From: Escherichia coli
GTDB lineage: Bacteria; Pseudomonadota; Gammaproteobacteria; Enterobacterales; Enterobacteriaceae
Direction: 5' to 3' (one strand)
DNA: 64,000 bases
Assembly (NCBI RefSeq): GCF_003334405.1
Contig: NZ_QOWM01000004.1
Below are positions 31,340-31,682 of this stretch, piece after piece. The stretch's first letter is position 1. The number at the start of each line of letters is the position of its first letter. A model generated the notes under the pieces. That model searched no databases, was not told the origin of the DNA, and saw nothing but the letters and a program-made list of their open reading frames with translations. The position numbers and the translations under genes are program-made.

Positions 31340-31362
31340 TTATCCACTATTCCTGTGGATAA
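31340..31362. promoter_or_regulatory. Pair of inverted DnaA-box-like 9-mers upstream of uvrB
   Basis: TTATCCACT and TGTGGATAA (DnaA consensus TTATNCACA) in inverted orientation separated by 5 bp. Confidence 0.5.
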
Positions 31363-31666
31363 CCATGTGTATTAGAGTTAGAAAACACGAGGCAAGCGAG
31401 AGAATACGCGGCTTGCACGCGAATTGGCGTTAAAGACGGCTCAAAGAAATATCTTTTATTTTTTAACTGGTTAGATAAATGCAATGGCAGTCACTGAACA
31501 GGCATCTCTTGCCATAAAACTGTCATCACTCATCTTGACAAATGTTAAAAAAGCCGTTGCTTTGGGGATAACCCGGTAAGGCCGGAGTTTTATCTCGCCA
31601 CAGAGTAAATTTTGCTCATGATTGACAGCGGAGTTTACGCTGTATCAGAAATATTATGGTGATGAA

Positions 31667-31682
31667 CTGTTTTTTTATCCAG
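31667..31682 (+). promoter_or_regulatory. LexA (SOS) box at the uvrB promoter
   Basis: CTGTTTTTTTATCCAG fits CTGT-N8-ACAG, about 75 bp upstream of the uvrB start, overlapping a TATAAT -10 element. Confidence 0.7.

Follow-up and report, generated by a model that had tools for sequence, protein, structure and literature searches.

The region analysed here lies between bioD and uvrB in a 64,000-nucleotide stretch of Escherichia coli DNA (contig NZ_QOWM01000004.1), which is referred to as the window and is numbered from its first base. A 701-bp query (window 31100-31800) matches 5,425 of 5,426 complete E. coli genomes and is located between bioD and uvrB. The gene order in the matching RefSeq record is bioA, bioBFCD, uvrB, yvcK (ybhK), the Moco (molybdenum cofactor) riboswitch and moaA, so that bioD, the final gene of bioBFCD, forms the left edge of the bioD-uvrB intergenic region. 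Window positions 30733-32233 correspond to K-12 MG1655 (NC_000913.3) 812,500-814,000 with zero base differences over 1.5 kb, and MG1655 coordinates are obtained by adding 781,767 to those of the window. Elsewhere in the window, the Moco riboswitch upstream of moaA occupies 35145-35289 on the plus strand (Rfam RF01055, 103.6 bits, in agreement with RefSeq). Rfam matches to naRNA4 (RF02564) and ES036 (RF02751), both families of REP-type repeat elements, are found at 24092-24162 (plus strand) and at 55821-55891, 33839-33880 and 50543-50585 (all minus strand), that at 33839-33880 being just downstream of uvrB.

The features of the region are listed below, where DARS1 denotes DnaA-reactivating sequence 1, to which the cluster of DnaA boxes is assigned with high confidence.

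30503-31180, plus strand: bioD (dethiobiotin synthase), from the list of open reading frames and the RefSeq annotation of a record that is 100% identical over the 701-bp query.
31340-31348, plus strand: DARS1 DnaA box I, TTATCCACT, with one mismatch to TTATCCACA at position 9.
31354-31362, minus strand: DARS1 DnaA box II, TTATCCACA (TGTGGATAA on the plus strand), a perfect consensus.
31366-31374, minus strand: DARS1 DnaA box III, TAATACACA (TGTGTATTA on the plus strand), from the sequence and a ChIP-seq double box.
31375-31420, no strand: DARS1 core flank with GAAAAC, GCGAGAG and CGCGGCTTG blocks, from the conservation profile and alignment.
31534-31552, no strand: conserved block TTGACAAATGTTAAAAAAG, from the alignment.
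31563-31571, minus strand: distal DnaA-like box TTATCCCCA (TGGGGATAA on the plus strand), from the alignment and spacing analysis.
31665-31684, no strand: LexA (SOS) box AACTGTTTTTTTATCCAGTA with its core CTGT-N8-CCAG at 31667-31682, from a matrix and the literature.
31683-31688, plus strand: TATAAT, likely the -10 element of uvrBp2, from the sequence; it overlaps the 3' end of the LexA box.
31692-31720, plus strand: predicted sigma-70 promoter TTGGCA-17-TAAAAT, from a consensus scan (10/12 matches).
31759-33780, plus strand: uvrB (excinuclease ABC subunit B), with its ATG at 31759.

The cluster at 31340-31374 consists of three DnaA boxes. A preliminary description of this DNA had reported a pair of inverted DnaA-box-like 9-mers at 31340-31362, and these are present there as TTATCCACT-ATTCC-TGTGGATAA; its estimate of about 400 bp to uvrB is also accurate, as the pair lies 397-419 bp before the ATG. 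Two boxes were thus correctly identified, but the count was short by one, the third box TGTGTATTA at 31366-31374 having been overlooked. Boxes I and II are placed head-to-head on opposite strands with the 5-bp spacer ATTCC between them. Box III has the same orientation as box II and follows it head-to-tail after a 3-bp spacer. In the naming of Wurihan et al., box II is DnaA-box6. Single boxes of the form TTWTNCACA occur at chance frequency in the 64-kb window (4 seen, 5.06 expected), whereas the palindrome TTATCCAC-N7-GTGGATAA occurs once against 0.01 expected from shuffles. The arrangement, and not any one box, therefore carries the signal.

The LexA box is situated closer to uvrB. Its position in the preliminary description (31667-31682) is correct; the right half given there, ACAG, is not, since the true half-site is CCAG (CTGTTTTTTTATCCAG). 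This sequence forms a CTG-N10-CAG palindrome with an AT-rich centre. The pattern CTGT-N8-ACAG with one mismatch allowed behaves like chance in the window, with 18 matches against 17.2 expected. Scoring was performed with a 20-bp LexA matrix for which 17 E. coli SOS boxes served as the training set and from which that of uvrB was excluded. The matrix places 31665-31684 first among 63,981 positions with 22.9 bits, far above background, where the top match outside the training set reaches 12.9 bits and the training sites themselves span 12.9-27.1 bits. The same 20-mer, AACTGTTTTTTTATCCAGTA, is given as the uvrB LexA box in the literature (PMC6015884), and footprints in that study show LexA-box1 protected at the lowest LexA concentration tested, with or without DnaA. 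The published position is between the -35 and -10 elements of uvrBp2, and 31665-31684 is the canonical uvrB SOS box at this promoter. Wurihan et al. (2018) name further sites, three of them weak LexA boxes and four of them DnaA boxes; the three LexA boxes score at most 1.4 bits or are negative in the matrix and were set aside as having no sequence support. The second-best matrix match in the window is TATTGGCTGTTTATACAGTA at 51269-51288 (18.1 bits), a training site that scores highly by construction. This is the SOS box of dinG, so that besides uvrB a second SOS-regulated gene lies in the window.

The sole strong consensus promoter in the region is TTGGCA-17-TAAAAT (31692-31720), which we infer to be uvrBp1 (P1). 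The LexA box overlaps the TATAAT at 31683-31688, and the predicted P1 -35 element follows 8 bp downstream of the box. At the DnaA-box core the consensus scan found no consensus promoter. The start of the distal promoter, uvrBp3 (P3), is said to have been mapped by Sancar in 1982, van den Berg in 1985 and Arikan in 1986. Three uvrB promoters, uvrBp1, uvrBp2 and uvrBp3, are recognized (Wurihan et al., 2018), of which uvrBp3 overlaps the DnaA boxes and is reportedly repressed by DnaA. The two sets of promoters are separated further in one natural isolate, E. coli VL7S7. Here an IS1 element has inserted 1 bp upstream of the LexA 20-mer, duplicating the 9-bp target 31656-31664, and the insertion puts 768 bp between DARS1/P3 and uvrBp2/uvrBp1.

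The conservation of these elements was followed with a scan for UvrB (first 300 residues, one genome per species), which returned 80 loci: 66 from Enterobacterales, 8 from Aeromonas or Tolumonas, 1 from Photobacterium, 4 from Rheinheimera and 1 from Colwellia. The core, in which box I is followed by box II after 5 bp and then by box III after 3 bp, lies 330-545 bp upstream of the uvrB ATG in every Enterobacterales locus but one (65 of 66), that of an insect-symbiont Pantoea. Of the 8 Aeromonas/Tolumonas loci 7 contain it as well, among them one Aeromonas locus (L070) whose sequence is truncated close to its own start, and so does the single Photobacterium locus. No core was found in the four Rheinheimera loci or the Colwellia locus. 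Wherever the core occurs its spacer is 5 bp long and box II is invariant, and it remains beside uvrB in loci that lack bioD or have it at a distance of 1.4-2.6 kb. A MAFFT alignment of the 65 Enterobacterales upstream regions gives at least 95% identity over 31338-31375, while much of the other intergenic sequence is just 10-50% identical. Within box I every position is conserved at 95% or above except position 9 (~70%). The sequence and arrangement of the cluster, its uniqueness in the window, its identity to MG1655 and its deep conservation, like that of the LexA box, are direct observations of the present analysis. Conservation across orders is, however, not new: according to PMC6090056, sequences resembling DARS were reported by Fujimitsu et al. 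(2009) close to uvrB and mutH of Vibrio cholerae.

As for the LexA box, 64 of the 66 Enterobacterales loci contain a CTG-N10-CAG match at 49-219 bp from the ATG, and its CTG and ATCCAG are conserved at 95% or above in this order. In the loci of the other orders, a search of the 250 bp next to uvrB gave no such box. In four Aeromonas and Tolumonas loci (L070, L071, L073 and L077) the cluster and uvrB are separated by an opposite-strand tRNA-Asn(GTT) gene. The tRNA scan covered these four and the Photobacterium locus (L080), where no tRNA-Asn was found in this interval. The block TTGACAAATGTTAAAAAAG (31534-31552) is kept in most Enterobacter, Citrobacter, Pantoea and Erwinia loci and has diverged in more distant genera; by eye, no convincing consensus for sigma-70, sigma-32, sigma-54, IHF, Fis or ArcA was found in 31534-31572. 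Other candidate features did not survive the alignment. The potential hairpin GCAAGC...GCTTGC of the core flank is conserved on its 3' side and varies without compensation on its 5' side. The small open reading frames at 31287-31433 (plus strand) and 31347-31484 (minus strand) are unconserved in their upstream part and change in length by numbers that are not multiples of three, and the E. coli ATG at 31479 is unconserved.

The published layout of a DARS core has boxes I and II in opposite orientation 5 bp apart, a full consensus at box II and box III alongside (Sugiyama et al., 2019; PMC6868365). The window cluster has the opposed boxes with their 5-bp spacer, box III beside box II and the location between bioD and uvrB, and it agrees with each point described for DARS1 (PMC6868365; PMC11724364). 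The 31340-31374 cluster is therefore very probably the core of E. coli DARS1, shared with the distal uvrB promoter. DARS1, uvrBp3 and the canonical uvrB SOS box are all already known. What the present analysis adds to the preliminary description is the correct name and the primary function of the DnaA boxes; the main finding itself is not new.

The main established role of DARS1 is the regeneration of ATP-DnaA from ADP-DnaA. ADP release, the binding of DnaA and LexA, the promoter activities and the mutant phenotypes all come from published experiments. For this exact sequence, ADP release in vitro and raised ATP-DnaA and initiation in vivo have been reported. Deletion of DARS1 lowers origins per mass, raises the initiation mass and carries a fitness cost in LB and in the mouse gut, and extra copies have the reverse effect on initiation. 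In PMC4585315 the primers used for the deletion lie at window 31157-31192 and 31634-31673, on either side of DARS1, and the deletion takes out all of the intergenic DNA as far as the LexA box. The same paper cites a requirement, for full ADP release in vitro, for 42 bp of sequence that flank the last box. Binding of DnaA is similarly documented. The ATP-DnaA DNase I footprint on DARS1 is strong (PMC6015884), and in a 2024 DnaA ChIP-seq study the DARS1 peak stands 16-fold over the control (PMC11317965). The double DnaA box listed for that peak, cTAATACACAtggTTATCCACAg, is the reverse complement of window 31353-31375.

In the model of PMC6868365, a head-to-head AAA+ dimer on boxes I and II releases ADP through Gln208, and the protomer on box III does not itself release ADP and has a stabilizing role. 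In the published mechanism, ADP-DnaA binds the perfect box II first, and another protomer is then recruited to box I, which has the opposite orientation and is 5 bp away, bringing the AAA+ domains of the two protomers together head-to-head. A third protomer, head-to-tail on box III at 3 bp, stabilizes the complex. The head-to-head pair then releases ADP and the empty DnaA reloads ATP, which makes more initiation-competent DnaA available ahead of the next replication round.

The same DNA would also act on uvrB. As the cluster overlaps the distal promoter uvrBp3, DnaA bound there would lower P3 transcription; ~313 bp downstream, LexA on the SOS box at uvrBp2 would repress the proximal promoters, which cleavage of LexA after DNA damage would set free. 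In this way uvrB would receive both DnaA and LexA input. The preliminary description had proposed such inputs at separate uvrB promoters, and in this it agrees with published experiments (PMC6015884), joint control of uvrB by DnaA and LexA having been published in 2018 and DARS1, uvrBp3 and the SOS box having been studied since 1982-2009. It missed the role of DARS1 in ATP-DnaA regeneration along with the third box and the CCAG half-site. Its proposal would have been undermined by the lack of a transcription start downstream of the DnaA boxes and of DnaA occupancy. The literature contradicts both conditions: a published promoter-lacZ fusion of the box-bearing fragment is active, and occupancy is seen in DNase I footprints (PMC6015884) and by ChIP-seq (PMC11317965).

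The dnaA(A345S) mutation and the deletion of lexA each raise chromosomal uvrB expression more than 3-fold, and together they raise it 5-fold (PMC6015884). Mutation of box II (TG to CA) raises P3-lacZ activity 5.9-fold in the wild type and 6.3-fold in dnaA(A345S) (PMC6015884). An effect of nearly equal size in both strains is not clearly mediated by DnaA, and part of it may act on the promoter or on LexA. In the fragment fusions of Wurihan et al. (2018), a P3 fragment has 20% and a P1-2 fragment 30% of the full region's activity, which makes the contribution of P3 modest and non-additive and leaves half of the activity unaccounted for. The stretch outside both fragments is ~31448-31649, assuming the P1 +1 near 31727, and contains the conserved block 31534-31552 and the distal DnaA-like box. 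A deletion plasmid (-279 to -172) also appears in Wurihan et al. (2018), with no result in the main text.

These transcriptional data raise the question of whether the DnaA boxes could be purely an operator for uvrBp3, with no separate role in the DnaA cycle. The de-repression of uvrB in dnaA(A345S) and the gain in P3 activity on mutation of box II (PMC6015884) are what such an operator would give, and the cluster stays beside uvrB across three orders despite a changing upstream neighbour. Against this, the box II mutation has an equal effect with and without full DnaA activity, and the published ADP release in vitro and initiation phenotypes in vivo give DARS1 a role in the DnaA cycle; the multicopy and deletion data already point the same way. 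The head-to-head boxes with a 5-bp spacer are common to DARS2 upstream of mutH, and a review citing Fujimitsu and Katayama (2004) describes an ADP-releasing sequence at the ColE1 origin that needs three boxes, two of them correctly oriented. Finally, the opposite-strand tRNA-Asn parts the cluster from uvrB in Aeromonas and Tolumonas, which suggests that the cluster is not conserved merely as an operator of the uvrB promoter. A purely transcriptional role is thus improbable, and the DARS1 assignment is preferred: the cluster is mainly an element of the replication cycle that is shared with uvrB transcription. Which function keeps it beside uvrB is a matter of interpretation in this study.

It was also considered that the inverted repeat could be an RNA hairpin, either a terminator or a processing site of bioBFCD, with its likeness to DnaA boxes incidental. 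The scan does call the repeat terminator-like, with a 9-bp stem and a 7-nt loop, and the RNA fold has -15.5 kcal/mol (z = -2.6). However, the tail CATGTGTATT has no T-run, just 4 of the 9 stem pairs are GC, and no Rfam match at E ≤ 1 lies in 30900-32000. Stem and loop are both near-invariant and so offer no compensatory changes; the one natural change in box I, that of Aeromonas (TTACCCACA) opposite an unchanged box II (TGTGGATAA), is uncompensated. Moreover, the element travels with uvrB and not with bioD, and DnaA binding has been demonstrated experimentally (PMC11317965; PMC6015884). Taken together these points make a hairpin extremely unlikely. A chance origin of the motifs in AT-rich intergenic DNA has hardly any standing either and is already refuted by conservation and published binding data: although single DnaA boxes and one-mismatch CTGT-N8-ACAG sites are both at chance frequency in the window, the paired arrangement has an expectation of 0.01, the LexA 20-mer ranks 1/63,981, and both elements are conserved at 95% or above where adjacent intergenic sequence fell to 10-50% identity.

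DARS1 as published comprises 101 bp and needs no activator protein (PMC11724364). Beyond these limits the alignments reveal a further DnaA-like box, TTATCCCCA, at 31563-31571. It has one mismatch to the DnaA consensus and the same orientation as boxes II and III, and in the window its start is 209 bp from that of box II. The conserved element TGGGGATAA(C), 31563-31572, is nearly invariant in Enterobacterales, with the box identical in 59 of the 65 core-bearing loci of this order. Among 64 related loci with the box or an equivalent, 31 have it exactly 209 bp from box II; this distance is 209 ± 2 bp in most Enterobacterales and 205-214 bp in all 64; the distance to the LexA box, by contrast, ranges from 54 to 160 bp. 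When the 75 core-bearing sequences (the window and 74 loci) were searched between +30 and +330 for the best same-orientation DnaA-like 9-mer, it was located at +205 to +225 in 70. The distal site is TTATCCCCA in 60 sequences, and other one-mismatch boxes occur at +210 to +225: TTATCCACC in Rosenbergiella and Tatumella, TTATCCACT in Aeromonas and TCATCCACA in Photobacterium. RNAalifold, run from box II to the distal box on 24 diverse species, gave -1.2 kcal/mol and zero covarying pairs, and thus no consensus RNA structure. The coordinate of the DARS1 ChIP-seq peak, 813,331 (PMC11317965), corresponds to window 31564, ~200 bp downstream of the DARS1 core, and falls on the distal box and not on the core. 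Two further observations concern its surroundings. In one of the tRNA-bearing loci (L073) the distal DnaA box lies 24 bp past the 3' end of tRNA-Asn, and in the window a weak terminator-like hairpin, CCGGTAAGGCCGG then AGTTTTATCT (31573-31595), directly follows the box and is not conserved elsewhere.

Wurihan et al. probably included the distal box in their 'potential DnaA-boxes 2-4'; its deep conservation and fixed spacing were not found described in the accessible DARS1 literature. The comparative sequence data tentatively suggest that DARS1 may extend beyond the published 101 bp and that the distal box may have a real, undescribed function, although this is put forward as a possibility rather than an expectation. 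The box could loop back to the core and tune ADP release, for example as an ATP-DnaA feedback site by analogy with boxes Va-Vc of DARS2. Alternatively, DnaA bound there could be a roadblock to P3 transcripts running toward uvrB. If the box is functional, DARS1 would gain a regulatory region, though it is described as needing no activator, and the recharging of DnaA would be physically linked to read-through transcription into a repair gene.

Comparison with known systems places the window element among well-described sites. It is identical to DARS1, located between bioD and uvrB at 17.5 min (Fujimitsu et al., 2009; Sugiyama et al., 2019), with no difference observed. The published uvrB promoter cluster (Sancar et al., 1982; van den Berg et al., 1985; Wurihan et al., 2018) is the same DNA, with the LexA box AACTGTTTTTTTATCCAGTA at P2 and the DnaA boxes at P3. 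At the DnaA-repressed promoters of dnaA, mioC and nrdA, as in the window, DnaA lowers transcription when bound to two close boxes. With the 3 bp between them, boxes II and III conform to the 'double DnaA box', but none of the other double boxes in the table of PMC11317965 is described with the extra opposite box of the DARS type for ADP release. The pattern of the distal box, a fixed spacing (~20 helical turns) with variable intervening sequence, resembles that of oriC.

DARS2 (rppH/ygdT-mutH, 64 min) is likewise upstream of a DNA-repair gene. Its core, TTATTCACC-TTTTC-TGTGGATAG followed after 3 bp by TGTGAAGAA, has the layout of DARS1, although its core boxes carry one mismatch each, unlike the perfect box II of DARS1. 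MG1655 DARS2 also contains a further perfect TGTGGATAA in the same orientation, 316 bp from box II, compared with 209 bp in DARS1. In the MG1655 DARS2 sequence (L003) the arrangement of box, 5 bp and inverted box occurs twice, at 1136-1158 and 1452-1474, and the TGTGGATAA of the second copy, ~30 helical turns from box II of the core, coincides with the ChIP-seq peak that is the strongest for DARS2; its spacing is a parallel to that of the distal box in DARS1. The two elements differ in their requirements: DARS2 depends on IHF and Fis bound to its regulatory region and is the stronger in vivo, whereas DARS1 reportedly acts with no activator.
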